Assembly (NCBI GenBank): GCA_021781955.1
Contig: JAJXVV010000002.1
Location: 74,730 to 138,729, forward strand
Source of the DNA: a bacterium
GTDB lineage: Bacteria; Patescibacteriota; Minisyncoccia; Phycocordibacterales; UBA2100
Length of the DNA stretch: 64,000 bases
Direction: 5' to 3'
A model generated the notes under the pieces. It had not been told where the DNA came from. It made no database searches and saw only the letters and a list, made by a program, of their open reading frames with translations. A program made the translations under genes and the position numbers. Every line of letters starts with the position of its first letter. The stretch's first letter is position 1. Shown piece after piece: positions 8,162 through 47,788 of this stretch.

Positions 8162-9919
8162 ATGAACCTCTCAAAATTCACGATCTTCGGGGTCGTTGCG
8201 GCCGCAGTGCTCTTGAGCGCTAACACGGCGTTCGCTCAGGCGAGCTACCTCTACAGCAGCGGCTCGTGCACGAATCTCGCCCAGGATCTCTCGTATGGGC
8301 AGCGCGGGACCGATGTTTCTGCTCTGCAGAGTTTCCTCGTGAGCCAAAATTACCCTGGCGGCGGCTCGTGGATGGTCACCGGCTATTTCGGCCAGGCGAC
8401 CGTGCAGGCGGTCCGCAACTTCCAGCAAGCGCACGGTTTGCCGATGACCGGCGCGGTCGACGCGTCGACGCGTGCGGCCATCAACAGCGCTTCGTGCGGC
8501 ACTTTTCCCGGTCTCGGGGGTACCGGCTACACGTACAATTACGATTACAGCTACCAGTGGCCGTACTCCGGCGCGAGCCCGTACACCAACAATTATAACT
8601 ACGGGTTCAACTACAACTACGGCTACAACAACTACAATCAGTGTGGCACCTATCCCTACTACTACCCGTGCTCCAATTACTCCTCCTACGGCACGGCGCC
8701 GCACATCACGTCGTTCTCGCCGACCATCGCCTCGCCGGGTTCGACGGTGACCGTGTACGGCACCAACTTCGATCTCTACAGCAACACGGTTTACGTGGGC
8801 GGTACGACGCTCTCCGGCATACCGTCGCAGAACGGTACGGCCATAACCTTCACGATGCCCGCGACCATGAGCGGGAGCGTTTCGGTCTCGGTCGGCAACG
8901 CGTATGGCACGAGCAACTCGCTCACGATCCAGATGAGCGGATCCGGTTATCCGTACAATTACAACTACCCGCCGTACAACTACCCGTGCGGCTACAACGG
9001 ATATGCTTGCCCGAATGCGCAAACGCCGGTCGTGACCTACCTCTCGCCGCAGCAAGGCGCGGTGGGCGCCTCGGTCACCGTGTACGGCTACGGCCTCAGC
9101 TCGACCGGTAATTCGGTGCATTTCGGCAATGGCATCATCGCCAACCTGATGTCGGTCGACGGTCGCTCGGTCTCGTTCGTCGTGCCCTCATCGCTCTCCG
9201 GTTACGGCTACCAGCCGATCGGCCTCGGCACGTACCAGGTATCCGTCACCAATAGCGACGGGCTTACGAGCAACGCGCTGCCGTTCACCATCACCTCGAC
9301 CTCGCAAGGCGGCAACGTGAGCATCACCAACGTGAGCGGCCCCTCGACCCTTGGCATCGGGGTGTCGGGCACGTGGAGCATCACGGTGCAGAACCCTTCG
9401 AGTTCGTACCTTTCGACCTCGGTCAATTGGGGCGACAGCGGCTACTACGCGCCGTCGACGCAGCAAGCGAACGTCTACTCCGGCTCCAACACGCTCACGT
9501 TCTCGCACGTCTATAGCGCAGGCGGCACCTACACCATCACCTTCACGGTAAGCAACGGGGCGGGGCAATCCGCGACCGCGACCGCGAGCGTCTCGGTATC
9601 CGGCACAGGCGGCCAGGGCGCGGTCACCATCAACTCCATCTCGCCGACCCAAGGCTCGATCGGTACGCAGGTCGCGATCTACGGCTCCGGCTTCGACGCG
9701 TACAACAATACGATCCATTTCGGCTCCGGCGGCACGATGCACGTACCGAGTCAAAACGGCGTCATCTATTACACAGTGCCGTCATACCTCTCGCCGTGCG
9801 ATGTCTCAAGCGGCGGCATCTGCCCGATGTACGCGCAGCAAGTTACCTCCGGCTCGTACCCGATCTACGTGACCAGTCCCAACGGCACGAGCAACACCCT
9901 CTCGTTCCAGGTGCAGTAA
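8162..9919 (+). CDS. secreted cell-surface protein: PG-binding domain, Y/N-rich linker, IPT/TIG-like repeats
   Basis: Signal peptide. PG_binding_1-like segment GQRGTDVSALQSFLV...VQAVRNFQQAHGLPMTG. Repeated SPTxxSPGSTVTVYGxxF units. Confidence 0.75.
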   Translation: MNLSKFTIFGVVAAAVLLSANTAFAQASYLYSSGSCTNLAQDLSYGQRGTDVSALQSFLVSQNYPGGGSWMVTGYFGQATVQAVRNFQQAHGLPMTGAVDASTRAAINSASCGTFPGLGGTGYTYNYDYSYQWPYSGASPYTNNYNYGFNYNYGYNNYNQCGTYPYYYPCSNYSSYGTAPHITSFSPTIASPGSTVTVYGTNFDLYSNTVYVGGTTLSGIPSQNGTAITFTMPATMSGSVSVSVGNAYGTSNSLTIQMSGSGYPYNYNYPPYNYPCGYNGYACPNAQTPVVTYLSPQQGAVGASVTVYGYGLSSTGNSVHFGNGIIANLMSVDGRSVSFVVPSSLSGYGYQPIGLGTYQVSVTNSDGLTSNALPFTITSTSQGGNVSITNVSGPSTLGIGVSGTWSITVQNPSSSYLSTSVNWGDSGYYAPSTQQANVYSGSNTLTFSHVYSAGGTYTITFTVSNGAGQSATATASVSVSGTGGQGAVTINSISPTQGSIGTQVAIYGSGFDAYNNTIHFGSGGTMHVPSQNGVIYYTVPSYLSPCDVSSGGICPMYAQQVTSGSYPIYVTSPNGTSNTLSFQVQ

Positions 9920-10218: not shown

Positions 10219-11298
10219 ATGTTGCGCACCCCGTTCTACGATCCGGAGAGGTCGTATGAGGATAACTACGATGCGGGCCCGTTCGGTGCGCTCGCTGGGC
10301 TCGATACGTATCAGATGGACGGCGAACCGCAGGCCGATTTTCTCGGCCAGAGAGTGTACGCGCCGTTCGGCATTCCGGCCGGACCGCTCTTGAACAGTGC
10401 GTATTGTGCCGCCGCCTTCAAGAAGGGTTTTGATATCTGCGTGTACAAAACGGTGCGCAGCGACGCATTCCCGTGCCACCCGTTCCCCAACGTGCTCGCC
10501 ATCCATCCCGAGGGAGACCTCACGCTCGAAGCGCTCAAGCGCCCGCTCGTGACGGATGCCTCGTACACCGAGCCGCTTTCCATAACCAACTCCTTCGGCG
10601 TGCCGTCGAAAACCGCCGCCGCATGGCAAGAAGACGCGAAGAAGGCGGTCGAGGCCGCCGGCAAAGGCCAAGTGCTCGTGTTGAGCTTCATGGGGACGGT
10701 GCGACCCGGCCAGACGGAGCAGGAATTCATCGACGACTACGCGCTCGCGGCGCGAATGGCTGCGGAGACCGGCGCGAAAGTGCTCGAAACCAATCTCTCA
10801 TGCCCAAACATCGGCAATGAGGGTTTGGTGTGCTACAACCTCGACGTTACCGAGAAGGTCGTCAAAGCCATACGCAAGGAGATCGGTTCGACGCCGCTCG
10901 TTCTCAAGGTCGGTTACTACCAGAACGACGCGGATATGGAGCGCCTCGCGGAAGCGGTGAATGAGTACGCGGATTCGGTCGCCGGCATCAATACGCTACA
11001 GGCTGAGATACGCAATGCGGCAGGGGAACAGGCGCTGCCCGGCTCGCCAGCACGTTTGCGCAGCGGCGTGTGTGGCGCGGGCATTCGCTGGGCGGGACTC
11101 GGCTTCGTGGAGCGCATGCACGCGATACGGGAGAGGCGCGGATTCTCATTCTCGATCGAAGGTGTCGGCGGAGTGATGAACGCAGAGGATTACAAAACGT
11201 ATCGCGACCTCGGCGCTGATTCGGTCATGAGTGCGACGGGCGCGATGTGGGACCCATACCTGGCGAGGGAGATAAAGGAGGCGTACCCGCATGCATAG
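10219..11298 (+). CDS. dihydroorotate dehydrogenase family (class 1-like) oxidoreductase
   Basis: ETNLSCPN signature and TIM-barrel flavoprotein pattern. Confidence 0.7.
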   Translation: MLRTPFYDPERSYEDNYDAGPFGALAGLDTYQMDGEPQADFLGQRVYAPFGIPAGPLLNSAYCAAAFKKGFDICVYKTVRSDAFPCHPFPNVLAIHPEGDLTLEALKRPLVTDASYTEPLSITNSFGVPSKTAAAWQEDAKKAVEAAGKGQVLVLSFMGTVRPGQTEQEFIDDYALAARMAAETGAKVLETNLSCPNIGNEGLVCYNLDVTEKVVKAIRKEIGSTPLVLKVGYYQNDADMERLAEAVNEYADSVAGINTLQAEIRNAAGEQALPGSPARLRSGVCGAGIRWAGLGFVERMHAIRERRGFSFSIEGVGGVMNAEDYKTYRDLGADSVMSATGAMWDPYLAREIKEAYPHA

Positions 11299-12277
11299 CG
11301 AGATGCGAGAAAAGATCGCGCATGCGATCGGTGAGCGGGTTTTCCCGGGATGCGTTGTCGGTACCGTGAATAAGGGCGGTGAACGCGAAGTGCTTCCATT
11401 CGGTCGTTTTACGTACGAAGCCGATTCGCCGGACGTGCGAGCCGACACGGTCTACGATCTCGCGTCGGTGACGAAATCCATCCCTGTCGCTTCGCTTGCG
11501 CTCACGCTCATGGGCGAGGGAATTTTGCGGCCTGATGACTTGGTGCGCGGCCACCTGCCGGAGGTGCGGAATGATCATGGCGCGACCATCGAAGATCTGT
11601 TGACCTATCGCGTGAAAGGACCGCGTTTCTCGGCGCTTGCGAGCAAAACACCAGAAGCATTCACGCGTTACGTGCTTGAGCGCGGATTCGACGGGCCGCC
11701 AGGCGAGAGCGTGTATAGCAATATGCCAGCGTTCTTACTTGGAATGGTCGTGGAGAGAGTGTCGGGCGAGCCGCTTGAGCGGCTCGCCAGCTCTCGATTT
11801 TTCGGACCGTTCGGTATGCGCGACACCTCGTTCTTTCCCGTCGACGTGAGCCGTATCCCGCCGACCGAGGTCGTGCAGGGCAACGAAGTGCGCGGCATCG
11901 TCCACGACGAAAGTGCGCGCGTATTCTCGCGCGCGCGCCGAGCCGTCGGCCATGCGGGTCTTTTCTCCACCGCGCCCGATTTGTTGGCGTTCCTCGAACG
12001 CCTGCTTCAGGGCGACATGCCCGCCGTGCTTGAAGGCGCTCAAAAAGGGTGGGGCTGGCAGTCTTCTGGCACCTTTTTGGGTCGCGAAGTGCGACCGGGC
12101 GCGTTCGGCAAGACCGGTTTTACCGGCACCTCGGTTTCGGTTGACGTCGCGCGAGGCATCGCGCTTGTGATTCTGGCAAATCGCACGTATCCGATGCGCC
12201 CCCTTGACGCCGCTTCACCGCATTCGGCGATGAACGGATTTCGCGCGGACATCTCCGATCTCGTTTTTATCGAATAA
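11291..12277 (+). CDS. serine hydrolase, beta-lactamase/PBP-like family
   Basis: S-x-x-K motif DLASVTKS. Overlaps the upstream gene by 8 nt. Confidence 0.75.
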   Translation: MHSEMREKIAHAIGERVFPGCVVGTVNKGGEREVLPFGRFTYEADSPDVRADTVYDLASVTKSIPVASLALTLMGEGILRPDDLVRGHLPEVRNDHGATIEDLLTYRVKGPRFSALASKTPEAFTRYVLERGFDGPPGESVYSNMPAFLLGMVVERVSGEPLERLASSRFFGPFGMRDTSFFPVDVSRIPPTEVVQGNEVRGIVHDESARVFSRARRAVGHAGLFSTAPDLLAFLERLLQGDMPAVLEGAQKGWGWQSSGTFLGREVRPGAFGKTGFTGTSVSVDVARGIALVILANRTYPMRPLDAASPHSAMNGFRADISDLVFIE

Positions 12278-12621: not shown

Positions 12622-14448
12622 ATGTGCGGGATATTCGCGTACACGGGCAAGGGGAAGAAGGACGCCGGGAAGGTGCTTCTCGACGGTCTGCTGTCGCTTG
12701 AGTACCGCGGCTACGACTCGGCGGGCATCTTTACGCCGGAGAGCGGCGCGGTAAAGACGCCGGGCGCGGTCAAAGAGCTGCGCAAAAAGGTGTCGAAAGA
12801 TTTCTCCGGTAAAAGCGGCATCGCGCATTTGCGCTGGGCGACCCACGGCGAGCCGACCGCCAAGAACGCGCATCCGCATTCGGATTGTGGAGGGGAGCTC
12901 TGGCTCGTGCATAACGGCATCATCGAGAATTTCAAAGAGCTCAAGGAAAAGCTCGCCAAGCTCGGCCACACGTTCCGCTCTGATTCCGACACCGAAGTAT
13001 TAGCGCACCTGGTGGAGGAGTACCTGGGAAAGACGCGGGATTTCGAAAAGGCCGCGCTCAAAGCGCTCAACGACGTGCGCGGCACCTATGGCATCGCGCT
13101 TCAGTACAAAGGCGAGCCGGACAAGCTTATTGCCGCGCGCATGGGCTCCCCGATCGTCATCGGCCTGGGGAACGGCGAGCATTTCATCGCCTCCGACCCA
13201 TCGCCCATTCTGCCGCATACCAAGAAGGTCGTATTCCTCGAGGATGGCGAGGTGGCGGTGCTGACACCGCAGAAACACGTCATACGGAAGCTCGATTCAT
13301 CACAGGTGCGGCGCAATGCGACCGAGATAGAGTGGAGCGCCGAGCAGGCGCAGAAGGGCGGGTACGAGCACTTCATGCTCAAGGAGATCATGGAAGGACC
13401 CGAGGTGATCGAGAACACCTTGCGCGGCCGGCTCTTGCCGAGCAAGGGCGATGTGAAGTTGGGCGGCCTTGAGAGCGTCGCCAAGAAGCTTGCAAAGATC
13501 GAGCGCATCATCATCGTCGCGTGCGGTACGGCCTACTACGCGGGCTTAGTGGGCGAGTACATGCTCGAGGAACATGCGGGCATTCCGGTGGAGGTGGAAC
13601 TCGGCAGCGAGTTCCGCTATCGCCATCCGGTCCTCAACGAACGCACGGCCGTGCTCGCCATATCGCAGAGCGGCGAGACGCTCGACACGCTCGAGGCCGT
13701 GCGCGAGGGCAAACGCCGCGGTGCGCTCACGCTCGGCATCGTCAACACGGTCGGCTCGACCATTGCGCGTGAGACCGATGCGGGCGTCTACAATCATGCG
13801 GGTCCCGAGATCGGCGTCGCCTCGACCAAGGCGTTCGTCTCGCAGCTGACCGCGCTCGCGCTCCTCACGATATTCCTCGGCCGGCAGCGCGGCATGAGCC
13901 CGAAGGAAGGCAAGCGGATCGCCAGAGAGCTCGCTGCACTGCCCAAGAAGCTGCAGGCGATACTCGATCGTCACGGTGACATAGAAAAACTCGCGAAGCA
14001 GTACGGCTTTGCGCGGGATTTCCTGTATCTCGGCCGCCGGTACAATCTCCCGGTCGCGTTCGAAGGCGCGCTCAAGCTCAAGGAGATTTCCTACGTGCAC
14101 GCCGAAGGGTGCGGTGCCGGCGAGATGAAACACGGCCCCATAGCGATGATAGACGAACGATTCCCGACGGTCGCGCTCGCGCCCATGGACAGCATGTACG
14201 AGAAAATGATCTCCAACATCCACGAGATAAAAGCGCGCAGAGGGCCGGTCATCGTCGTGGCGACCGAGGGCGACAAAGAGGTAGGGAAGCTCGTCGAGGA
14301 CGTGCTCTATGTGCCGAAGACGATCGAAATGCTCGAGCCGATACTCAATGTTGTGCCGCTCCAGCTCTTCGCCTACTACTTCGCGCGCGCGAAGGGATTG
14401 AATGTCGATAGGCCGAGGAATTTAGCAAAATCCGTGACGGTCGAGTAA
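12622..14448 (+). CDS. glmS: glutamine--fructose-6-phosphate aminotransferase
   Basis: N-terminal MCGIFAY Ntn nucleophile, two SIS domains, and C-terminal ...KSVTVE. Confidence 0.95.
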   Translation: MCGIFAYTGKGKKDAGKVLLDGLLSLEYRGYDSAGIFTPESGAVKTPGAVKELRKKVSKDFSGKSGIAHLRWATHGEPTAKNAHPHSDCGGELWLVHNGIIENFKELKEKLAKLGHTFRSDSDTEVLAHLVEEYLGKTRDFEKAALKALNDVRGTYGIALQYKGEPDKLIAARMGSPIVIGLGNGEHFIASDPSPILPHTKKVVFLEDGEVAVLTPQKHVIRKLDSSQVRRNATEIEWSAEQAQKGGYEHFMLKEIMEGPEVIENTLRGRLLPSKGDVKLGGLESVAKKLAKIERIIIVACGTAYYAGLVGEYMLEEHAGIPVEVELGSEFRYRHPVLNERTAVLAISQSGETLDTLEAVREGKRRGALTLGIVNTVGSTIARETDAGVYNHAGPEIGVASTKAFVSQLTALALLTIFLGRQRGMSPKEGKRIARELAALPKKLQAILDRHGDIEKLAKQYGFARDFLYLGRRYNLPVAFEGALKLKEISYVHAEGCGAGEMKHGPIAMIDERFPTVALAPMDSMYEKMISNIHEIKARRGPVIVVATEGDKEVGKLVEDVLYVPKTIEMLEPILNVVPLQLFAYYFARAKGLNVDRPRNLAKSVTVE

Positions 14449-14457
14449 CTCGTCCAG

Positions 14458-15510
14458 CTAGATTTCCACGAGCTCTTCCCACGGCCTGCCGGCGACGCCG
14501 AAGTGCCCGTACGCGGCCGTTTCCCGGAATATCGGCCGGGTGAGCCCGAGCCGCTCAATAATGGCCTGCGGGCGGAAGTCGAAGTGCTTCGTCACCACGG
14601 ACGTGAGGTTCTTGCCCTTGTCGTCGAATGCTTCCACCATGACGGGCTCAACGCGTCCGATGGCGTAGGCGACGGAGACGAGCGCCTTCTTCGCGTGGCC
14701 GTTCGCGACGAGATTTTTCGCGGCGAAGCGGCACATGTACGCGGCAGAGCGGTCCACCTTGGTCGCATCCTTTCCTGAGAACGCGCCGCCGCCGTGCGGC
14801 ATGAGGCCGCCGTACGTGTCGACCATAATCTTGCGGCCGGTCAGCCCCGCATCGGCCGCGAAGCCGCCGATCTCGAATTTGCCCGTGGGGTTGACCAGTA
14901 TCTCGATGTTTTTCGTCGAGCCCAAGATCGGCGTAAAGAGGTGCTTGATGAGCTCTTTACGAATGTCCTCCTGCGAGATCTTCTTGTCATGCTGCGTCGA
15001 GGTGAGCGCGGTGATGACCTTGCCTTGGGAGATGGTGACTTGCGTCTTGCCATCGGGCTTGAGCCACTTGAGCGTGCCGTCGCGGCGCAGCTTTTCCAGA
15101 CGGCGCGCGAGCGCGTGCGCGAGCACCACGCCTTTGGGCAGGTACTCTTTCGTCTCATTGGTGGCGTAACCGTACATGATGCCCTGGTCGCCGGCGCCGC
15201 CCACGTCGACGCCTATCGCAATATCGGGCGACTGCTTCGCGATCGTGTTGAGGACTTTCAGTTTCTCCGTATAGCCGATATCGCGATACACCTTGCGCGC
15301 GATTTTCTCGAAATCGACCTTCGCCCTCGTCTTCACTTCGCCGCCGAGCATGAGGGTACCGTGGCTGCCGAAACTCTCGACCGCGACGCGCGAGAGCGGG
15401 TCTTGCGCGAGACAGGCGTCGAGTATCGCGTCGGATATCTGATCGCACACCTTGTCGGGGTGGCCGCTGGTAACGCTCTCGGTCGTGTATCTTTCTAAGA
15501 GGTGGAACAT
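14458..15510 (-). CDS. metK: S-adenosylmethionine synthetase
   Basis: Motifs GHPDKVCDQISD, GAGDQG and DTYGG; 350 aa. Confidence 0.95.
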   Translation of the reverse strand: MFHLLERYTTESVTSGHPDKVCDQISDAILDACLAQDPLSRVAVESFGSHGTLMLGGEVKTRAKVDFEKIARKVYRDIGYTEKLKVLNTIAKQSPDIAIGVDVGGAGDQGIMYGYATNETKEYLPKGVVLAHALARRLEKLRRDGTLKWLKPDGKTQVTISQGKVITALTSTQHDKKISQEDIRKELIKHLFTPILGSTKNIEILVNPTGKFEIGGFAADAGLTGRKIMVDTYGGLMPHGGGAFSGKDATKVDRSAAYMCRFAAKNLVANGHAKKALVSVAYAIGRVEPVMVEAFDDKGKNLTSVVTKHFDFRPQAIIERLGLTRPIFRETAAYGHFGVAGRPWEELVEI

Positions 15511-15518
15511 GTCGGCAA

Positions 15519-15548
15519 CAAAATATCTCCCTGAGGGAGATTATTGAT
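15519..15548 (-). terminator. riboswitch expression-platform terminator
   Basis: Minus-strand RNA aaucucccucagggagauau followed by uuuuguug, just before the metK ATG. Confidence 0.5.
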
Positions 15549-15549
15549 A

Positions 15550-15655
15550 ATGCGTATCATCCCACCAGGCTGGATGGAGCACCTTGTCTTTCTCGGATAG
15601 GTTGCCGGCGGGTCATCGAGCCAGTTCTCTTGCCGCGCTCTTGATACGATATTCA
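15550..15655 (-). ncRNA. SAM-I (S-box) riboswitch in the metK leader
   Basis: Minus-strand read cgUAUCAAGAG...AGAGAaCUGGCuCGAUGAcCC..CGGCAACC...AAGGUGCUccAuCC...GAUGAUACG matches the S-box core. P1 pairs cguauc with gauacg. Confidence 0.7.
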
Positions 15656-15695
15656 GTTGTAGGGGAATACTAGCACGCGCCCGCGGCCGCGCAAC

Positions 15696-16706
15696 TCACG
15701 CCAAGAAATGCACGCCGGCAATCTTCGCGATGAGAGCGGCGAGACGCTTGGGGTCGTGGCGCACGAGCGAGCTCTCGACTTTCGGCGTACCGGTCTTCGA
15801 GAGGGGAGCGAGCGAGGAGAGCAGGTTGCTGCCGAGGAGCGTTCGGCCTTCGGGCAGGTCCTCCCACGAGGTGAGGGTGTCGCCTTCGCGGGCGTACCGC
15901 TTCAGGAGCTGCGGCGAAGGTTTCTTGTCGTTGTAGATGACCACGTCCACCTTGCTGCGGAGGTATGTTTCAAGAAGCGCGGTGTAATCGGCGACGCTGT
16001 AGTTCTTGGTATGCTCGAGCTTCGTCATCAGGTTGCAGACGAATACCTTTTTCGCGTGGCTCTTGCGTATCGCCTCCGGTATCCCTTTGACGAGGAGGTT
16101 GGTGACCAGGCTCGCGTAGAAGTTGCCCGGGCCGATGACGATGACGTCGGCTTCGCGTATCGCATCGAGCGCTTTCGGGTTGGCGCGACCGGCCGGTTCG
16201 AGCCAGAGCTTTTTCAGCGCACCGTTGAGCTTCGTCATTTGTATCTTCTCCTCGCCGTGGACGACGCGCGCACCGACCTGCGCGACGAGGTCGACGCGAT
16301 CGAGCGTGACCGGTACGACGCGGCCATTGATGCGCAAGAGCGTGCTCGCGGTCTCCACGGCCGCATCGAACGAACCGGTCATTTTTTCCAGCGCGGAGAG
16401 AAAGAGGTTGCCGAACTTGTGCCCCGAGAGCCCGCCCTTGTCGAAACGGTAGTCCATGAGCGTGCGCATCTGCCGGCTTGAGGAAGAGAGCGCCACCAGA
16501 CAGCGCATGACGTCGCCAGGAGGAAGCACACCGAGCTCGTCGCGCAAACGTCCGGTCGAACCGCCGCTGTCGGACATCCCGACGATGGCGGTGAGCGCGA
16601 AGGGATACTTCTTGAGGCCGCGCAGCGCCGTGTAGGTGCCGGTGCCGCCGCCGATGACCACTACCCGCTTTTTGCGCCGCTCCCGTGCCATACCCATTCG
16701 GGCCAT
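15696..16706 (-). CDS. YvcK/CofD-like gluconeogenesis factor (UPF0052)
   Basis: Motifs VVVIGGGTGT and GMSDSGGSTGRLR. Confidence 0.8.
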   Translation of the reverse strand: MARMGMARERRKKRVVVIGGGTGTYTALRGLKKYPFALTAIVGMSDSGGSTGRLRDELGVLPPGDVMRCLVALSSSSRQMRTLMDYRFDKGGLSGHKFGNLFLSALEKMTGSFDAAVETASTLLRINGRVVPVTLDRVDLVAQVGARVVHGEEKIQMTKLNGALKKLWLEPAGRANPKALDAIREADVIVIGPGNFYASLVTNLLVKGIPEAIRKSHAKKVFVCNLMTKLEHTKNYSVADYTALLETYLRSKVDVVIYNDKKPSPQLLKRYAREGDTLTSWEDLPEGRTLLGSNLLSSLAPLSKTGTPKVESSLVRHDPKRLAALIAKIAGVHFLA

Positions 16707-16845
16707 ACTATCTAGAAAGTGGCCTGGCGTCCATGATCATTCCCAGCCTTGCTTGGCGGCACTCTTCCCGGTACCGGTGCGCGGGCAGGACGATGCGGTG
16801 ATCGGCCGCTCGCTCGAAGTGCCGATAGTGATACAGTAGGCCGCA

Positions 16846-17507
16846 TGGAGCGGGAGGAAGAACGACGGGTGCGTGCACGCAAGCTAGTCGCTTACCTGAA
16901 AAAGACTTACCCGAAGCCGAAGACCGAACTCGTGTACCGCACGCCGATGCAGCTCGTCGTGGCAGTCGTACTTTCCGCGCAGGCGACCGACAAACAGGTC
17001 AACAAGGTGACCGCGACGCTTTTTAAGAAATACAAGACCGCGAAAGATTTCGCGCGAGCGGATGCGCGCACGTTCGAGAGGGAACTATCATCGCTCTCAT
17101 TCTTCCGCAATAAGGCGAAAGCAGTACGAGCGGCCGCGAAAGTCATCGAAGATGACTTTCGCGGCAAGGTCCCGCGCACTGTCGCCGAACTCACGAAACT
17201 TCCCGGCGTCGGCTACAAGACCGCCAATGTGATCCTAGGAGAGCTCTATGACATCTGGGAAGGCATCCCGACCGACACACACGTGAAGCGGTTCGCGAAG
17301 CGTTTCGATCTCACCGATGAGAACGACCTCAAGAAAATATCGCATGACCTTGAACGTTTGATCCCTAAAAAAGACTGGAAGTACGTCAATAACGGTTTTG
17401 TCCTCTATGGCCGCTACGTCTGTTCGGCGCGTCCGCACGACTGCGCAGATCATCCACTCACCGGATTATGGTCTCAGGCCGCAAAACGCTGGCCGAAAAC
17501 ACGTTAG
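16846..17507 (+). CDS. nth: endonuclease III-like HhH-GPD DNA glycosylase
   Basis: HhH motif LTKLPGVGYKTANVI. Start trimmed to MEREEERR. C-terminus has only two of the four FeS Cys (CSARPHDCADH). Confidence 0.8.
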
Positions 17508-19711
17508 AGCCCCCGTTTGATTCGCCGCATTGTTTCCACGAGGTAGTTGATCCAGTACTGTTTCGTGAGTGGCTTATCCTGTGCGTGGAGGTAGCTCTCG
17601 GCGAAACCGCCAAAGCCTTTCTTGAAGAGCGATAGCCCTGCCCACGGATGCTCGGGGCGGCCCTCCGGCGAGATGCCCCAAAAGTTGTAGAGCGTGCAGC
17701 CGCGGCGTTTCGCTTCTTGTATCACGCGCCACTGCAAAAGATACGACGCGTTGATGTCGCGGAACGTCGGCACCGAGCCGCTGTGATGGTAGAAGGCCTG
17801 TCCATTGTAGAAGATGATGATCGCTGCGGCGATGGTCCGACCTTCGTAGCTGCCGAAAAAGAACGCCGCATGACCGTCCTTGGCGAAGAGCTCGAACTCG
17901 CGCCTCAGGTGCTCTTTGCGGAACGGCGTGAACTGCTGCCGCTCGACGGTGGCTTGATACACCTGCCAGAATTTCTCGATGTCGCCCGGATCGGTGCTTT
18001 GCGCGATTTCGACGCCTTTTCTCTCCATCTGTTTGATGAGGTAGCGGGTCGTCTTGCGCATATCTTTCAACAGGTCGTCCTCAGACTTGGTGAGGTCGAG
18101 CATCCAGGCAAGTTCGGGATGCATATGGATTGGCGCGTTGCGGAAACCGAGCGAACGGTAGTGCTGGGCGGGCTCCTCCGTCGCGGGAGAGAGGGGGCAG
18201 ATGCGTATGAACGCGCACTTCTCGCGCGCGCCGAGAGCCTCGGCTTTCTCCGCGATGAATTCGAACAATAGCGCCTCGTCGTTACCCGGCGTTATGAGCG
18301 GGCCGTGCGGGCACAATAAAAAAGAACCGCGTCGTGCCGCTATTTTCAGGAAAAGCGCGGCCGCGACGAGTCGCTGCTCGCGGTACACGCCGATGCGGAA
18401 TACGCCCACGCCTTCTTCCGCATGCAGCTGCCCCCACGTCCACGAGTGCAAAAAGCTGTGCGGTGCACGCATAGTGATGAAGGCCTCCCACGCCGCTTCG
18501 CTCGTTACCTCGGCAACGTGATATCCGGCGTTACGCGCCTGCAGCCATTCGCTTGCGAGATCGGCGATGCGGCGCGCCGCTCTCTCGGAGACGTTGCGGT
18601 GCGTTGGCAAGTTGACCATGAGGTCCGCGACGCGTTCGCCGTGCGGGCATTCGCCGCGATAATTCGTATGTGAAATATATTTTTGCGGGGAAATCGGCGC
18701 GTCGTACCAGATGTCGGACACGTACATACCGTTCTTGCGCAGATATTCGATGAGTTGGTCACGATCAAGGGCGAGGAGCGGGAAACGTATAGCAGAGGTC
18801 TTATCGAATTTGAGCGGGAGAGGCGAGCAGACGCCGAAACGTTCCGCGTACATGCGGGCGATGCGCTGACGATGCGCTTGCGTTCGCTCGAGCTGCTGGA
18901 ATTGCCGTGTGATGAGCCCGCAGTACCAGTCCGGCAGAATGCGGACGTCGCTCTTGAAGCCGTCGAACGGGCGCGAGAGAAGATGCGACGAACGCAGGAG
19001 CGCGTGGAACGGCTTGCCTAAGCCGAGAGGATAGAGCGTGCGTATCTTCCACGTGAGGATCGGGTAAAGCCGGTCTTTGAGTTGTTGCGAAATCGGTACG
19101 GGTACCGCGGGTGCGGGCATTCGATCGGCGTACCGTCCGTTGCGGACGATGAGCGCGCCGCCCGAGACCGCATCGATCACCTTGTCCTGGCTGAACGAGA
19201 GTGCTGTGAAGTCGCCGACGGTGCCAGCCTCGCGGCCGTCAGCGTAGCGCGTGCCGATGGCATGGGCGAGGTCTTCGATGAGCGGTATGCCGTGCTCCTC
19301 GCAGAGCTTCTCGATGGGTCCGATGTCGCAAGGAAAGCCCAGCGTGTTCTGCACGACGACCGCGACGATACCAGCGTGCTCCGTAAGCGCTCGCTCGAGC
19401 GACTCCGGCGGGAAGTTGAGCGAGTGATCGCCGATGTCGAGGTAGAGCGGCGCGTGCCCGCTCTCGGCCACCGCCTCGAAGACCGCGTAGCACGTGTAGC
19501 CGTTGACGACGACCTTGCCTTTATGCGGCAGCGCTTCGAGCGCGAGCCGCAATGCATCGCGGCCTTTGTAGGTGAGGACAACGCTTCCACCGTAGCGCTG
19601 GCTCAAGAGTTTCGTGAGCTGGCCGCGCACGCCTTTGCCGCCAGAGGCGACGAGCGTCTGCAGCGCCGTGCGCAGATCGTAGTTGGAACCGAGCGAGTTG
19701 AATACGGTCAT
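17504..19711 (-). CDS. fusion protein: DegT/DnrJ/EryC1-type PLP aminotransferase (N) plus FemAB-family peptidyltransferase (C)
   Basis: N-terminal 380 aa show the sugar-aminotransferase pattern with SFSQDK lysine. C-terminal 350 aa show the FemAB pattern. One uninterrupted 735-aa frame. Confidence 0.8.
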   Translation of the reverse strand: MTVFNSLGSNYDLRTALQTLVASGGKGVRGQLTKLLSQRYGGSVVLTYKGRDALRLALEALPHKGKVVVNGYTCYAVFEAVAESGHAPLYLDIGDHSLNFPPESLERALTEHAGIVAVVVQNTLGFPCDIGPIEKLCEEHGIPLIEDLAHAIGTRYADGREAGTVGDFTALSFSQDKVIDAVSGGALIVRNGRYADRMPAPAVPVPISQQLKDRLYPILTWKIRTLYPLGLGKPFHALLRSSHLLSRPFDGFKSDVRILPDWYCGLITRQFQQLERTQAHRQRIARMYAERFGVCSPLPLKFDKTSAIRFPLLALDRDQLIEYLRKNGMYVSDIWYDAPISPQKYISHTNYRGECPHGERVADLMVNLPTHRNVSERAARRIADLASEWLQARNAGYHVAEVTSEAAWEAFITMRAPHSFLHSWTWGQLHAEEGVGVFRIGVYREQRLVAAALFLKIAARRGSFLLCPHGPLITPGNDEALLFEFIAEKAEALGAREKCAFIRICPLSPATEEPAQHYRSLGFRNAPIHMHPELAWMLDLTKSEDDLLKDMRKTTRYLIKQMERKGVEIAQSTDPGDIEKFWQVYQATVERQQFTPFRKEHLRREFELFAKDGHAAFFFGSYEGRTIAAAIIIFYNGQAFYHHSGSVPTFRDINASYLLQWRVIQEAKRRGCTLYNFWGISPEGRPEHPWAGLSLFKKGFGGFAESYLHAQDKPLTKQYWINYLVETMRRIKRGL

Positions 19712-20400
19712 AACGCTTCCGATTCTCGCTGGACGAGATCGGCCACCTCTTTTACGTTCGTGATGTGCGGCGAGTGGCGCGCGTCGGGGATGACGACGAG
19801 GCGCGACCCGGCGATGCGCGCGTGCATGAGCCTGCCATCTTCGAGCGGCGTTGTCGTGTCATGCGCCCCCCAGACGATGAGCGTGGGACAGGCAATTGCC
19901 GCAATCCGCTCGCTCAAATCCGCCGCGACCAGGTTCGCCATCGTCTTGCGCATGTTGGGGGAGGCATTGGCGTAATCGCTCGCACGTATCGCGCGACGGA
20001 AGGTGCCCCGCAAGCGCTCGAAGCGCACGAAGCGGCCGAATATCTGGGCGAGGACGCGGAACGCGTCACGCTTCAATTTACGCACGCCGCGCGGCGGAAT
20101 GCCCGCGCTATCTTCGAGGATGAGGCGCGATACTTTGTCCGGGCGCGCGAGCGCGTAGGCGAGCGATATGCGGCCGCCGTTGGAGTGGCCGTACAAGATT
20201 ACCCTGTCATCGCCGACAATCTCGTCGAGCCAGGCGGCGTAGTCGTCGAGCGTCCATACGGGATCGCTGCCGTCGGTAAGGCCAGGTATGCGGAGGAACT
20301 CGTGCTCGATGCCGCGCGCGGACAATTCCTGCCGCAGCGCGTCCCATGTCGCGGTTTGATATGTCCAGCCATGGAGCATCAAAAGCCTCATAATCCCCAT
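19708..20400 (-). CDS. alpha/beta hydrolase
   Basis: GHSNGG nucleophile elbow. Start likely MGIMRLL or MRLL. 4-nt overlap with the downstream fusion gene. Confidence 0.8.
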   Translation of the reverse strand: MGIMRLLMLHGWTYQTATWDALRQELSARGIEHEFLRIPGLTDGSDPVWTLDDYAAWLDEIVGDDRVILYGHSNGGRISLAYALARPDKVSRLILEDSAGIPPRGVRKLKRDAFRVLAQIFGRFVRFERLRGTFRRAIRASDYANASPNMRKTMANLVAADLSERIAAIACPTLIVWGAHDTTTPLEDGRLMHARIAGSRLVVIPDARHSPHITNVKEVADLVQRESEAL

Positions 20401-21644
20401 TGTGCTCGCCGCTTTCGCCATATTTCCTCTCGTCGGCAGAGCTTTGCCGCGTCGGAAGGGTCGGCAAGCAGGTGCTCGACCACGCCCTCAAGAAAGCGCG
20501 CGCCCTTGAAAACGATGGTCTCACCGCCGCGAAGATTCGTGCGCAAGTATTCGAGCGCGTCCGCCGGCTTCTCCAGCGGAATAACCTCTTTGTTGACGAC
20601 GAGCGGCAGCGTGTAGCGAGTAACGCGCGGCCCGACGAACAGGATGCGTCGCACGTCCATGCCGTTGAGCAGGTGCGCCAGTTTCTCGTGCTCTTCCTTT
20701 TCTTGCGATCCCTGCTCGACAAAATCGCCGAGCACGAGCCAGAGCTCTTTTGCGGGGAATTTCTCGACCATCTTGAGAATGGCACGCGTTGAGGAGAAGT
20801 TGGCGTTGTACGTGCTGTCGATGAGAACCGTCGTCTTGATGCCTTTGAGGAGCGAACTGCGGCCGGGCGGTAGAGCGGCTTTCCAGAGTTCCGTGGTCGG
20901 CGTGACGCCGAAATACGTCGCGACCTCGGCGGATGCAGCGATGGAAGCCCATGTTTCTTCCGGCAACAGGTAGGGTACGCGGTATCGCGTGCCGCCGATG
21001 CCGAACTCAGTGCCGCTGATCGTGATATCCCATCGAACGTTCTCATCGGTTTTGCGTAGCGCGCGGACCTTGGCGTCGGCGCGCGGCACTTCGTCGCCGA
21101 TGAGCGGCTCGTCGGCGTTCACTATGACGAGCCGCTGCGCGCGTTCAGCGAAATAGCCGAATTCATGCGCGATGAGCCGGTCCACGGAAACGCCCCGCGC
21201 ACGAGCGGAGCGCTCGAAATTCATGCTGTGTGTGCGCGCCGACGAGAGCCACACGACGACCTCTGGTTCGAGGAGCGCGCTTAAGAATTCACCTTCGCCC
21301 GGACGGTCGCTGTCGGCCTCGACGACGTAGATGTTCTCGGGATACGGTCCCTTCCACGCATATATCGGCGCGAGCAGGAAAAACCAGAGCCACTCGATCG
21401 GCGCATAGCTCTTGCGCGTGAGGCCGAGGATGTCGAAGGGGATGCCGAAGGAGCTGTTGGCGTGGCGCGAGTAATGGGCACGCTCGCCGAGCTGCATCTC
21501 GATCAGCGTGAACGTGGTCGTTTTGCCGTTGGAGCCGGTCACGACGACGACGCGCGGATGCCAGCGCGCAAGACGGATACGCGCGAAAAAGCGGAAGTAG
21601 GCCGCGATGGGGAAGTAAAAGAAGTCCTTGATACGGCACACCAT
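20388..21644 (-). CDS. Mur ligase family protein (MurF-like central and C-terminal domains, no N-domain)
   Basis: VVVTGSNGKTTT P-loop directly at the N-terminus. 418 aa. Confidence 0.7.
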   Translation of the reverse strand: MVCRIKDFFYFPIAAYFRFFARIRLARWHPRVVVVTGSNGKTTTFTLIEMQLGERAHYSRHANSSFGIPFDILGLTRKSYAPIEWLWFFLLAPIYAWKGPYPENIYVVEADSDRPGEGEFLSALLEPEVVVWLSSARTHSMNFERSARARGVSVDRLIAHEFGYFAERAQRLVIVNADEPLIGDEVPRADAKVRALRKTDENVRWDITISGTEFGIGGTRYRVPYLLPEETWASIAASAEVATYFGVTPTTELWKAALPPGRSSLLKGIKTTVLIDSTYNANFSSTRAILKMVEKFPAKELWLVLGDFVEQGSQEKEEHEKLAHLLNGMDVRRILFVGPRVTRYTLPLVVNKEVIPLEKPADALEYLRTNLRGGETIVFKGARFLEGVVEHLLADPSDAAKLCRREEIWRKRRAQWGL

Positions 21645-21719
21645 TCAGCACAGAATACTCGATTTTCCACGATTTTCCACGCACTCGCCAGGCGGCTCTC
21701 GGAGCGGTACTATTGAACG

Positions 21720-22456: not shown

Positions 22457-23335
22457 ATGCGCGCACGACGAGTCACGACATCGAATGAGGTGGACCGACG
22501 AACGGCTGGCGCTGTTCGTCTGAAAGAGCGCGCTGTCCGCTTCCGCCGTGCCGTGTGGGCGTACTACCGTATGCACGGTCGGCACGATCTCCTGTGGAGG
22601 AGGACCACAGATCCGTACCGCATCCTCGTTTCCGAAATGATGCTGCAGCAAACGCAAGTGCCGCGCGTGATACCGAAATACCGGTCGTTCATCAAAAGAT
22701 TCCCGACCGTCCGGCGCTTGGCGCAAGCCTCGCTCGCCGATGTTCTAAAAGAGTGGAGCGGATTAGGATACAACCGGCGTGGGAAGTTCCTGCATGACGC
22801 AGCGAAGGAGGTCGTCGGACGATACGGCGGGCGCGTCCCGCAGGACGCGCCCGCTCTCCGCGCGCTATCGGGGGTCGGCGAGTATACCGCTTCTGCCGTT
22901 CGCGCTTTCGCATTCAACAAGCGGGTCGCGATGCTTGAGACCAACATCCGTACCGCTCTCATTCATCATTTTCATACCACAGAGGACGGTCCTCTGGGGA
23001 AAGTTGGGGACAAGGGCTTGACGGAATTGATGGCGAAGATCGTCGAGGTCGAGAAACGACCGAGGGAATTCTACTGGGCGCTCATGGATTACGGCGCGCA
23101 TCTGAAAGCGAGCGGCGTACGGAACAATATTCGCAGCAAGCACTACGCGAAGCAATCGAGGTTCGAAGGCTCGCTCCGCCAAGTTCGCGGGGAGATCCTC
23201 CGCCAGCTCTCCAACGGAGGACCGTCCTCTGCAATATGCAGAGGACGGTCCTCTGCGCGGATGCGGGAGGCGCTCAGCGGGTTGGAGCGGGACGGTCTTA
23301 TCAAAAAGGAGAAAGGGAAATGGCACATCGCCTAA
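22457..23335 (+). CDS. MutY-like HhH-GPD adenine glycosylase homolog lacking the FeS Cys cluster
   Basis: MutY-like start WAYYRMHGRHDLLWRR and HhH LRALSGVGEYTASAV. No C-x6-C-x2-C-x5-C. Contains three in-frame copies of the palindromic repeat. Confidence 0.7.
   Translation: MRARRVTTSNEVDRRTAGAVRLKERAVRFRRAVWAYYRMHGRHDLLWRRTTDPYRILVSEMMLQQTQVPRVIPKYRSFIKRFPTVRRLAQASLADVLKEWSGLGYNRRGKFLHDAAKEVVGRYGGRVPQDAPALRALSGVGEYTASAVRAFAFNKRVAMLETNIRTALIHHFHTTEDGPLGKVGDKGLTELMAKIVEVEKRPREFYWALMDYGAHLKASGVRNNIRSKHYAKQSRFEGSLRQVRGEILRQLSNGGPSSAICRGRSSARMREALSGLERDGLIKKEKGKWHIA
22980..22999. repeat. palindromic repeat copy inside the MutY-like CDS
   Basis: CAGAGGACGGTCCTCTG-ggg, translated in-frame as TEDGPLG. 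Confidence 0.85.
23215..23255. repeat. two inverted copies of the palindromic repeat inside the MutY-like CDS
   Basis: cGGAGGACCGTCCTCTG-caatatg-CAGAGGACGGTCCTCTG, translated in-frame as NGGPSSAICRGRSSA. Confidence 0.85.
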
Positions 23336-29594: not shown

Positions 29595-29631
29595 GCGCGG
29601 GCCAGCCTTGGGCTGGCCCGCGCCGTTTTCG
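29595..29631 (+). terminator. rho-independent terminator of the groESL operon
   Basis: Perfect hairpin gcgcgggccagcc-ttg-ggctggcccgcgc followed by cgttttcg. Confidence 0.6.
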
Positions 29632-29646
29632 CGGTACCATACCGAC

Positions 29647-31785
29647 ATGGTTGTGCGCCTACGCCCGGGGTTCCTTGCGGCATCGATACTTGTGTGCGGC
29701 CTGCTGACGCCCGTCGTCTTGTCCGCGCAAACGACGCCGTCTCTGGACTCTGGTCCTGGCGCCAACAGCGAGTGTCCAAAACCAAATGCGGACCAAGGGT
29801 ACAACTCGCAATACTCATGCGGCGAAACGTACCCTGACCAAGGCCTCGAAAAGGTGAATTTATACGGGTGTCCGTGTTCCAACTCGCTGGTGAGGGGCGT
29901 GTGTACCGCCGTGGATTATTGCAAAGGTGAGTCGTGCAAGATAGGGAGCACGTGGGACTCGTGTACCAAACAAAACGGCGTCAGCGGGAGCGCGACGCCG
30001 GGACAGACCTCTTCGCCGACGACGCCCGTAACGTCGCCTCAGCAAAGTGCGAGCCTGTTTCCAAGCGTGCAAACGCCGTCCAATACGATACCGAATATCG
30101 ATACCACGAATGCCGCGACCCCGAACGGCCAGAACGTCCCGCCTTCGCAAGGGTTTTCGTCGTCACCCGACCTCTTTCAATCCGGGCAGTTCACCGCAGC
30201 CGATCTCGGAAAGTATGAGACCGTGCGAACGACCCCGACGGGTGCGGGGTCCGCGAGCGGCTCGATCACGCCGCAGAGCATGACGGATTCGCAGTTCCAA
30301 CTCACGCCCGTTCCAACCGATAGCATTACCCCAACGCCCGTGCGAACGGCCGTCATTGGCGATCAATCCTATGGCGGAAGCAGCGGAGAGTTTACCGGTG
30401 CGCCGGACGCCTCTGCCCCGCAAGCGCCGTGCGCGTCTCTCGCGTCGTACTCATGTTTCTCAAGCGCCGCATCGCAGGTCGGTGGCGCGGTCTCGTATGC
30501 GGCCGATCAGCTGTTCGGCGTGCAAAGCGCGTCGGCTAAGGCCGGGACCGTGTCGCAGGCGTACTGTCTCGCGAACGCCGATTCGTGTCTCGCGCAGGAT
30601 TCGGGGCAAGCCTCGTTCTACGATTCTCGCCTTGGCGGCATCAATTCGAGCGGGCTTGGGCGCACGGCCAACGGCGAAGTGCCCAACATGAACGACACCA
30701 CGTTCGCCTCGCAGCGCTTGCCGCTCAACACGGTCGCACAGGTGTGCAACAACGACTCGGGGGATTGCACGTATGCTCGCGTCAACGACACTGGCGCGTT
30801 CGATCAGCCGAAATATGGTAACCGCATCGCCGACCTGACGCCAGGTACCGCGAGCGAGATCAATGTGCAAGGGCTTGCGAATATCACGATTACGCCGATC
30901 GGCATTTACTCGAGCGGCGCGATGGCCAAACAGGTGACCGACAATCTCAACAGCGGCTCCTCGCTCGGGGATGCGGTCTCGCAAGCTTCCGAATCGACCG
31001 GCGATCGAGCTATCTATACCGTGCTAACGAGCGCAGAGACGTTGCCGTTGAGCACCGATACGCTGCGTGGTTTTACCGGCTACTCGCCTGCGTCGATGAC
31101 GATCGCCGACAACCAGACCAACTGGAACCAAACATCGGCAGGCACCATCACGCCCGAGGCTCCTGTCGTCGTGCCGGATTCGTTCGCCGCGTACGGCCAG
31201 CCGTCCGCGACTCTCGGCACCATTTCGAACATCGACTGGAGCAATCCGCCGTACAGCGCCGCGCCGACGGTCTCTTCGTCACAGCCGATCGCCGACGCCT
31301 TTGCGCCCTTTGCCGGCGACACGAGCGGGCTCTCGCCGATCAGCTCGACACAGCCCGACAGTCGGCAACTCGGCTCTGAGGTGACTCCCGCATACTCGAA
31401 CGCAGGGTACGGCGGCATCGCTCCCGCCACGGAGCCGCCGCCTGGGACCGTCCCGACGCAGGAGAGCATGCCGAGTACGTCGGGGGCGTCGACGCTCACG
31501 GCCGCCCAGCAGAGCGCGATCGCCGAAGTGCAATCGATTGGTCGTAATCTGCAACCCGGCATGAACGGACAAGACGTCGTCGCACTGCAAGATTTCCTCA
31601 AGGAGCAGGGCTTCTTCCCGCAGAACGTGGCCTCGACCGGCTACTACGGCTCTGTTACCCAAGCGGCGGTCGCGGCATGGCAACAGTCGATTGATCTTGC
31701 TGGCGCGACAGGTGCCGGCTATAGCGCTAAGGAGTACGGCTATTTCGGCCCAATCTCTCGCGTCTACGTGAGCACGCTGCGGTAG
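29647..31785 (+). CDS. large secreted S/T/G-rich protein with C-terminal peptidoglycan-binding domain
   Basis: Signal/TM MVVRLRPGFLAASILVCGLLTPVVLSAQ. C-terminal PG_binding_1-like GMNGQDVVALQDFLKEQGFF...YYGSVTQAAVAAWQQ. Start trimmed because the longer frame overlaps the terminator. Confidence 0.7.
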   Translation: MVVRLRPGFLAASILVCGLLTPVVLSAQTTPSLDSGPGANSECPKPNADQGYNSQYSCGETYPDQGLEKVNLYGCPCSNSLVRGVCTAVDYCKGESCKIGSTWDSCTKQNGVSGSATPGQTSSPTTPVTSPQQSASLFPSVQTPSNTIPNIDTTNAATPNGQNVPPSQGFSSSPDLFQSGQFTAADLGKYETVRTTPTGAGSASGSITPQSMTDSQFQLTPVPTDSITPTPVRTAVIGDQSYGGSSGEFTGAPDASAPQAPCASLASYSCFSSAASQVGGAVSYAADQLFGVQSASAKAGTVSQAYCLANADSCLAQDSGQASFYDSRLGGINSSGLGRTANGEVPNMNDTTFASQRLPLNTVAQVCNNDSGDCTYARVNDTGAFDQPKYGNRIADLTPGTASEINVQGLANITITPIGIYSSGAMAKQVTDNLNSGSSLGDAVSQASESTGDRAIYTVLTSAETLPLSTDTLRGFTGYSPASMTIADNQTNWNQTSAGTITPEAPVVVPDSFAAYGQPSATLGTISNIDWSNPPYSAAPTVSSSQPIADAFAPFAGDTSGLSPISSTQPDSRQLGSEVTPAYSNAGYGGIAPATEPPPGTVPTQESMPSTSGASTLTAAQQSAIAEVQSIGRNLQPGMNGQDVVALQDFLKEQGFFPQNVASTGYYGSVTQAAVAAWQQSIDLAGATGAGYSAKEYGYFGPISRVYVSTLR

Positions 31786-47401: not shown

Positions 47402-47738
47402 CGCCTGCGTTAGGCAGTCGCTCCGACCTGGCGTCGGAGAGGAAAGTCCGGACACGCACTTCGACGCTCGTCGGAGTAGCAGGGTAGCGGGTAACGCCCG
47501 CCTGGGTGATCCAAGGGATGCGAACAGAGACGCCCGAGCCGAGAGGCAAGGGACTCCGCGAGGAGTAGCTCATGCGGGAACGCATGAGGTGCAACGGCAA
47601 AATTCCTACCCGCGTGCAAGGCCGTGTCCAGCTGTCATTCTCAATTGAAATGACCGCTGGAAGTGCCGCTCGAGGTGAACGGCGACGTTCATCCCAGATA
47701 AATGATTGCCCTCGACAGAATCCGGCTTACAAATGCAG
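47402..47738 (+). ncRNA. rnpB: RNase P RNA, bacterial type A
   Basis: GAGGAAAGUCCGGAC, AGGGUAGCGGGUAACGCCCGCCUGGG and ACAGAAUCCGGCUUA. -10 cataat at 47392-47397. Confidence 0.8.
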
Positions 47739-47740
47739 AT

Positions 47741-47770
47741 GCAAAACCCGCCTCTCGGCGGGCTTTGTTT
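47741..47770 (+). terminator. rho-independent terminator after rnpB
   Basis: cccgcc-tctc-ggcggg followed by ctttgttttt. Confidence 0.6.
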
Positions 47771-47788
47771 TTATGGCACAATAGGCCG

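Follow-up and report, generated by a model that had tools for sequence, protein, structure and literature searches.

The enzymes closest to the system described here are the peptidoglycan ligase MurF, the aminoacyl-tRNA-dependent transferase FemX and the pyridoxal-5′-phosphate (PLP)-dependent sugar aminotransferases of the DegT/DnrJ/EryC1 class. A tRNA-dependent domain is also present in DhpH (DhpH-C; PMC12945691). In FemX of Weissella viridescens (FemX_Wv; PDB 1NE9/4II9), a UDP-MurNAc-pentapeptide:L-Ala transferase (UDP, uridine diphosphate; MurNAc, N-acetylmuramic acid), residues K36 and R211 bind the UDP diphosphate of the substrate. Patescibacteria, also known as the Candidate Phyla Radiation (CPR), constitute a large part of bacterial diversity, and we know of no determination of their cell-wall chemistry. 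Peptidoglycan pathways have been reported to be essentially complete in CPR genomes (PMC7143001). Here, we analysed a 64,000-nt stretch of a patescibacterial contig (JAJXVV010000002.1, positions 74,730 to 138,729; hereafter the window) that carries a minus-strand operon for a short MurF-type Mur ligase, an α/β-fold serine hydrolase and a fusion of a DegT-type aminotransferase to a FemABX-type (Fem) transferase. We consider it probable that this cassette, murF(short)–hydrolase–degT–femX, is a phylum-wide patescibacterial operon for late cytoplasmic steps of peptidoglycan-precursor synthesis, of which Kaiserbacteria carry a fused version.

Gene order and context across Patescibacteria

The operon comprises three overlapping minus-strand open reading frames (ORFs), arranged as a first-pass annotation of the window had described: the ligase gene (20388–21644; 418 aa), the hydrolase gene (19708–20400; 230 aa, with alternative starts at 20391 and 20421, the latter yielding 237 aa) and the fusion gene (17504–19711; 735 aa). 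An ATGA at 19708–19711 is common to the hydrolase stop and the fusion start, and hydrolase starts at 20391 (again an ATGA) or 20400 overlap the TGA stop codon of the ligase gene (20388–20390). Within the fusion, the DegT/DnrJ/EryC1-type PLP aminotransferase domain spans 18533–19711(−) (residues 1 to ~393) and the FemABX-type aminoacyl-tRNA-dependent transferase domain 17504–18523(−) (residues ~397–735 plus the stop codon). A Pfam scan bore out the annotated domains, namely Mur ligase, α/β hydrolase, DegT and FemAB.

The order ligase–hydrolase–DegT–Fem was present in all of the eight loci compared first (L numbers below). Scanning metagenomes with an alignment of the ligase then yielded 80 loci. 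Among the related loci retrieved, 39 had 4.2 kb or more of downstream sequence, and 37 of these kept the order (exceptions: L033 and L075), as did deep-branching loci at 30–38% identity. The architecture had been called unusual; this holds relative to characterised bacteria, but not within Patescibacteria, where the four activities habitually occur together. Throughout the cassette loci the hydrolase gene lies between the ligase and DegT genes. In one locus, the hydrolase and DegT genes are separated by an inserted gene for an LD-carboxypeptidase (Peptidase_S66, LdcA-like, of peptidoglycan recycling; L052:11966–12937(+)).

Several loci place the cassette among genes of precursor synthesis. In L083, it is part of a division and cell wall (dcw)-type cluster with the order murE(+glmU-N), murC, murB, murD, murI, short ligase, hydrolase, degT, fem, mraY, ftsW, murG, (ftsQ), ftsA, ftsZ. 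The short ligase gene thereby sits between murI and the trio that precedes mraY, i.e. in the murF slot, and this locus contains no murF besides it. The ligase gene is directly followed by ddl in L033 (with a 4-nt overlap) and L065, ddl lies divergently upstream in L061 and L064, and murC, murD or murE adjoin the cassette in seven further loci (L020, L038, L068, L070, L072, L076 and L088). The first-pass annotation had contrasted its proposal with ordinary murF/femX genes in a dcw cluster, and the dcw slot in L083 and the ddl genes behind the ligase in L033 and L065 partly realise that ordinary arrangement. Because of the same contexts, the ligase, which had been proposed as a new amide-forming step, is better read as the MurF of the lineage.

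Two further features of the L083 cluster were noted: in a single 697-aa ORF (L083:3442–5535(+)), a full MurE is joined to the N-terminal half of GlmU, its uridyltransferase part, and the cluster also holds glmS and a glucosamine-6-phosphate isomerase-like gene. Outside the cassette, the genes that recur as neighbours have housekeeping functions (type IV pilus ATPases, holB, gyrB/gyrA and H+-PPase). In the unrelated loci L035, L052, L063, L085 and L091, an IS200-type Y1 transposase-like gene lies no more than a few kb away from the cassette. Public annotation of the cassette proteins is piecemeal (‘Mur ligase family protein’, ‘cyanophycin synthetase’, ‘alpha/beta hydrolase’, ‘FemA/FemB family protein’), and the literature we searched describes neither the cassette nor an N-domain-less MurF in CPR nor a DegT–FemX fusion.

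The four activities and the DegT–Fem fusion

Pfam assigned to the ligase the domain Mur_ligase_C (PF02875; 44.1 bits) and, just above the cut-off of 24 bits, Mur_ligase_M (PF08245; 24.7 bits, borderline). When a profile of the ligase was compared with PDB sequences, all seven matches were MurF and no other family was recovered. The AlphaFold2 (AF2) model of the ligase (pLDDT, i.e. predicted local confidence, of 91.7) gave a concordant picture: in a Foldseek search of the PDB, ranks 1–10 were all MurF (6e-21 to 6e-17), ahead of MurC, MurD, MurE, MurT and Mpl, the ligases other than MurF appearing from 1e-14. In view of these sequence and fold matches, the dcw murF slot and the adjacency to ddl, the short ligase is most likely this phylum’s MurF. 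Assignments as MurT, CapB, FolC or a cyanophycin-synthetase-like enzyme were rejected, as their matches ranked below MurF or were fragmentary. The family comprises at least 1,323 clusters at 90% identity, all listed members measure ~410–440 aa, and its Joint Genome Institute (JGI) label is MurF.

The ligase had been annotated as beginning directly at the P-loop and lacking the MurF N-domain. The latter is correct save for one helix, whereas the P-loop, TGSNGKTT (residues 36–43, nt 21516–21539; TGSNGKT is invariant across the family), comes after a conserved N-terminal helix (residues 2–28). Ligase residues 20–74 align with MurF residues 72–129, and of MurF domain 1 the last helix (MurF residues ~72–100) alone is retained. 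Absence of the N-domain holds family-wide, the P-loop lying at residues 25–39 in the most distant members. Additional conserved features are a hydrophobic helix at residues 82–96 and a basic C-terminal tail, CRRExVWxxRRxQWGL.

In four loci, genes for short MurE proteins (384–404 aa) are convergent to the cassette: L038:4319–5533(−), L068:14180–15349(−), L072:6219–7373(−) and L076:7816–8970(−). Their match to the murE model begins only at profile position ~70–89, and their N-termini, ‘MIRK(I/L)KN...’, resemble that of the short MurF, ‘MLRKIKN...’. In both ligases, the UDP-binding N-domain seems to be lost, a similar N-terminal helix having been gained or kept. MurE genes beside some cassettes keep the motif EDPR(S/T)E, i.e. 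the Arg of the DNPR-type motif, which suggests a third residue of the diaminopimelic acid (DAP) type.

The C-terminal part of the fusion matched FemAB (127.5 bits; cut-off 24) and Acetyltransf_6 over residues ~450–721. FemX was the best NCBIfam model; none of the three operon proteins reached an equivalog cut-off. A profile of the Fem part retrieved Staphylococcus aureus FemX (6e-33) and W. viridescens FemX (2e-21) from PDB sequences. Foldseek superposed the domain, which has a double-GNAT (Gcn5-related N-acetyltransferase) fold and no coiled-coil arm, on FemX_Wv with a template modelling (TM) score of 0.82 and a root-mean-square deviation (rmsd) of 3.2. Fusion residues F696–K697 are equivalent to FemX_Wv F304–K305, and the equivalents of F304, K305 and Y254, residues of catalysis and tRNA-end binding, are invariant in 43 family members; the Fem domain accordingly looks catalytically competent. 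The position of FemX_Wv K36 is occupied by Arg in 42 of the 43 proteins in a MAFFT alignment, but by His in the HMMER alignment.

As to the donor, no dedicated tRNA gene lies consistently beside the cassette across 38 loci. In six of these (L005, L008, L031, L043, L068 and L072) a tRNA-Ala(GGC) gene occurs within a few kb of it, with about one expected by chance. This excess points weakly to Ala-tRNA as the donor for Fem, but it could also be due to common ancestry of the loci.

The DegT_DnrJ_EryC1 domain was detected at residues 46–384 of the fusion (145 bits; cut-off 19.8). The putative PLP lysine, K177, lies in SFSQDK (nt 19181–19198) and the accompanying aspartate, D147, in IEDLAH (residues 145–150); both are nearly invariant among DegT homologues, so that this domain, too, looks catalytically competent. 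A further motif, FNSLGSNY (residues 4–11), is invariant and specific to the family. Fold matches comprise ArnB, DesV, QdtB and PseC (TM ~0.75). By sequence, only residues ~37–198 match PDB entries, namely sugar and inosose aminotransferases, and the best NCBIfam models (PseC/LegC/DesI; 94.7 bits against cut-offs of 360–650) cover the N-terminal half only. The domain falls below the cut-offs of all characterised equivalogs compared (PseC, LegC, DesI, WecE, ArnB and others). Residues ~207–295 are predicted to form four long helices (207–229, 232–241, 261–272 and 274–295), for which neither a PDB sequence match nor an equivalog model covering them was found.

The middle gene encodes a protein with matches to Abhydrolase_1/6 and Hydrolase_4. 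Its HG oxyanion motif (residues 10–11), the GHSxGG nucleophile elbow (here GHSNGG, residues 71–76, nt 20173–20190) and the Ser/Asp/His triad (with Asp181 and His209) are conserved in 58 homologues, and the hydrolase likewise looks catalytically competent. The region corresponding to the cap is rich in basic residues. Its nearest PDB sequences are esterases and a proline iminopeptidase (~1e-12), and BioH-like esterases are the best NCBIfam models, with no equivalog cut-off reached.

The DegT–FemAB fusion proposed by the first-pass annotation proved genuine. An identical 735-aa protein is encoded on 13 contigs from independent assemblies of different samples, and full-length homologues with 52–67% identity form more than 55 clusters (90% identity); where a name is attached to them, it is Candidatus Kaiserbacteria, Parcubacteria or Patescibacteria. 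Full-length fusions at a greater distance share 30–41% identity. Scanning 1.84 billion representatives, 1,103 proteins (50%-identity representatives) matched the fusion at E ≤ 1e-30, and ~28 of the best 150 of these representatives were full-length fusions. The fused clade is monophyletic, the domains are conserved on either side of the junction, and the AF2 model places the junction within a confidently modelled linker. Given the independent contigs and the many homologue clusters, the fusion is real and inherited. An origin as a lost stop codon, assembly error or pseudogene would agree with degT and fem being separate genes with short overlaps in most Patescibacteria; the contigs, clusters, monophyly and linker refute it for practical purposes. 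The predicted TM (pTM) score of the fusion model, 0.69, suggests that the orientation of the two domains to each other is uncertain.

Apart from the Kaiserbacteria clade, fusions occur in L085 and in the lineages of L005, L089 and L090, and a neighbour-joining tree of the DegT part indicates at least three independent fusion events. In L005, L089 and L090, the fusion gene is followed by a second Fem gene, as expected of interpeptide-bridge enzymes.

Possible roles in precursor synthesis

The observations are domain identities, conserved catalytic residues, an invariant gene order, a recurrent fusion and a setting among mur, ddl and dcw genes. From them we sketch, conditionally, what the short ligase would do as MurF, what Fem would use as acceptor and donor, and which reactions DegT and the hydrolase might catalyse. 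The short MurF would add Ddl-made D-Ala-D-Ala to UDP-MurNAc-tripeptide. Using an aminoacyl-tRNA, possibly Ala-tRNA, the Fem domain would then attach a branch residue to the UDP-MurNAc-peptide, the acceptor being the free amine of the third-position diamino acid as in Weissella FemX. The PLP aminotransferase and the serine hydrolase would serve as accessory enzymes on the same precursor or branch. The invariant placement of the DegT and hydrolase genes between murF and femX, along with the repeated DegT–Fem fusion, argues for a PLP step coupled directly to the Fem step. Our favoured guess is that DegT acts immediately before or after Fem transfer, where it would make the acceptor amine, or convert or epimerise a branch residue with a free α-amino group, and that the task of the hydrolase would be to trim or proof-read an ester or amide. 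A replacement of Ddl/Alr in D-Ala-D-Ala supply by the cassette was considered and rejected, since ddl genes are present, coupled directly to the ligase gene in two loci (L033 and L065) and close by in two more (L061 and L064).

We tentatively extend this proposal to a precursor that is chemically distinct in Patescibacteria, a possibility we regard as doubtful on balance. A post-MurF PLP enzyme physically coupled to FemX, together with the serine hydrolase, would perform a step that has not been described before and whose substrate would be either the UDP-MurNAc-peptide or the branch that it receives from tRNA; the acceptor amine could be made in situ or the branch residue transaminated or epimerised. 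In MurF, and in some lineages MurE, recognition of the UDP substrate without an N-domain would follow a new mode, for which a multi-enzyme complex might be the setting.

A number of observations weigh against assigning the cassette to precursor synthesis. The best NCBIfam model for the ligase is murF (TIGR01143), yet its score of 116.5 bits stays below the cut-off of 288.6, and the UDP-binding N-domain, a defining feature of MurF, is missing. On the evidence of individual loci, the short ligase is presumably the sole MurF of the lineage, but a second, canonical murF might lie elsewhere in the genomes. The window’s own operon lies outside any dcw cluster. In the Fem domain, the position of the phosphate-binding Arg211 of FemX_Wv is an invariant Phe. 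Characterised relatives of the DegT domain all act on keto-sugars or inososes, while UDP-MurNAc-pentapeptide offers an aminotransferase no carbonyl; as, in addition, no oxidoreductase or dehydratase is conserved nearby, a role of DegT on a muropeptide is conjecture. The reported completeness of CPR peptidoglycan pathways, in turn, fits if the short ligase is the one that was counted as MurF.

These points bear on an alternative that we rate as unlikely and that corresponds to the reading of the first-pass annotation, in which DegT aminates a nucleotide-linked keto-sugar, the fused or adjacent Fem aminoacylates the new amine and the operon is merely co-regulated with murF. The resulting N-aminoacyl amino sugar would be used to modify glycan strands or to build a secondary wall polymer or a glycoconjugate. 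All neighbours of DegT by sequence and by fold are nucleotide-sugar or inosose aminotransferases, in agreement with such a route, as is the replacement of FemX Arg211 by Phe. Moreover, the three or more fusions suggest consecutive steps, an amine being made and then acylated. Acylation of an amino-sugar amine by a Fem-fold enzyme has precedents in Sbb17/Sba18 (in the PDB with streptothrisamine) and Orf11 (PMC12945691), and the PLP–Fem fusion DhpH is a further precedent for the route. However, no 4,6-dehydratase, sugar oxidoreductase, glycosyltransferase or flippase gene is conserved in the ~80 loci, although a keto-sugar-supplying gene might be located elsewhere in the genome. The trio directly follows murF and in the dcw cluster of L083 comes right before mraY, the tandem second Fem genes fit peptide-bridge synthesis, and the Fem domain is nearest to peptidoglycan FemX, not Sbb17.

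Still less probable, in our estimation, is a salvage module, in which the hydrolase (as an S33-like peptidase or esterase) and the aminotransferase would process scavenged host muropeptides or amino acids and so feed MurF and FemX, e.g. through peptide trimming or D/L or keto interconversion, in organisms unable to make these building blocks. The resemblance of the hydrolase to proline iminopeptidases and esterases is in line with this, as are the LD-carboxypeptidase gene inserted into the L052 cassette, a gene for an oligopeptide-binding protein (SBP_bac_5) nearby in the window, L001 and L004, and a class IV aminotransferase gene adjoining the cassette in L006. Yet no DegT-family enzyme is known to act on peptides or free amino acids, the LdcA insertion was seen in one locus only, and salvage leaves the recurrent DegT–Fem fusion unexplained.

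If the cassette does act in precursor synthesis, its phylum-wide gene order points to two extra steps without a counterpart in model bacteria, and MurF would apparently remain functional in the absence of the domain to which binding of the UDP moiety is ascribed. This would provide a testable handle on CPR wall structure, on the host-derived needs of these episymbionts and on lineage-specific antibiotic targets. Should DegT and the hydrolase instead prove to work in some unrelated route of sugar metabolism, what is left is a case of conserved synteny.

Surroundings of the operon and described relatives

The operon is separated from a divergent HAD-hydrolase gene by a 75-bp intergenic region (21645–21719; no strand assigned), which is the sole candidate promoter/operator region of the operon. 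It contains a perfect tandem of two copies of GTGGAAAATC (21661–21680, minus strand), 17 nt upstream of the short murF start, and no further exact copy of this tandem is present elsewhere in the window. A promoter and terminator scan of the operon gave no signal above chance. Paralogues of the ligase, hydrolase, DegT or Fem were not found in the window or the first loci.

On either side of the cassette lies a gene for an HhH-GPD (Nth-like) DNA glycosylase (16749–17507(+) and 22457–23335(+)), an arrangement also retained in the Kaiserbacteria locus L004; the stops of the former and of the convergent fusion gene overlap by 4 nt. The window, which derives from a Candidatus Kaiserbacteria-like member of the Patescibacteria, otherwise consists of housekeeping DNA, including glmS, metK, a YvcK/CofD-like gene, nth and the genes for RNase J, groES/EL, MurJ and LepA. 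Of these, glmS, metK and the CofD/YvcK-family gene are grouped at 12622–16706, just downstream of the operon. In Bacillus, YvcK/GlmR is a UDP-N-acetylglucosamine-binding regulator of GlmS, and this group could be a neighbourhood for cell-wall precursor supply. The window also encodes the flippase MurJ (47702–49489(+)), two large PG_binding_1 proteins (8162–9919(+) and 29608–31785(+); a DPBB_1 match was recorded for one of them) and a β-lactamase-family (PF00144) protein (11291–12277(+)).

Taken singly, MurF, FemX and DegT enzymes are known, and the core of the cassette, murF and femX, is ordinary; it stands out by the phylum-wide addition of the aminotransferase and hydrolase and by the loss of the ligase N-domain. 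With MurF (Thermotoga maritima 3ZL8, Acinetobacter baumannii 4QF5, Escherichia coli 1GG4) the short ligase shares the P-loop central ATPase domain and Mur_ligase_C, but it is without the N-terminal UDP-binding domain save for the last helix, and has in addition the hydrophobic helix and the basic tail. MurT, of the MurT/GatD complex for lipid II amidation, is likewise a Mur ligase without the UDP-binding N-domain. However, MurT appears only from Foldseek rank 22 downwards, well behind MurF; domain scans of the short ligase revealed Mur_ligase_M and Mur_ligase_C and no additional C-terminal domain; and the cassette encodes no glutaminase partner.

The cassette DegT shares with the sugar aminotransferases (ArnB, QdtB, DesV, PseC, WbpE and the inosose aminotransferases) the fold-type I PLP domain, the SFxxxK lysine and the EDxAH aspartate motif. 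Its FNSLGSNY motif and unmatched C-terminal half set it apart, and no partner that makes a keto-sugar is encoded nearby. The Fem domain has the armless double-GNAT fold of W. viridescens FemX, with F304, K305 and Y254 in common and Arg211 changed to Phe, and is related by sequence profile to S. aureus FemX (6SNR); in contrast to FemX, it is always encoded directly after, or fused to, a DegT aminotransferase. Sbb17, Sba18 and Orf11, amide synthases whose substrate is the amino sugar of streptothrisamine, share the Fem-like fold and the aminoacyl-tRNA-dependent acylation of an amine, but match more weakly than FemX (1e-9 by sequence) and belong to an antibiotic pathway.

A parallel to the fusion itself, likened by description only, is DhpH of dehydrophos biosynthesis, in which a PLP domain is also fused upstream of a Fem-like aminoacyl-tRNA transferase. 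Its N-terminal domain is said to be PLP-dependent, reportedly from work by Bougioukou et al. in PNAS in 2013. In DhpH, the product of the PLP domain is the amine that becomes acylated, and the C-terminal transferase depends on Leu-tRNA. Whereas DhpH acts on a small phosphonate substrate and is part of a secondary-metabolite cluster of Streptomyces, the cassette forms a core operon that is found throughout the Patescibacteria and has a link to mur genes.

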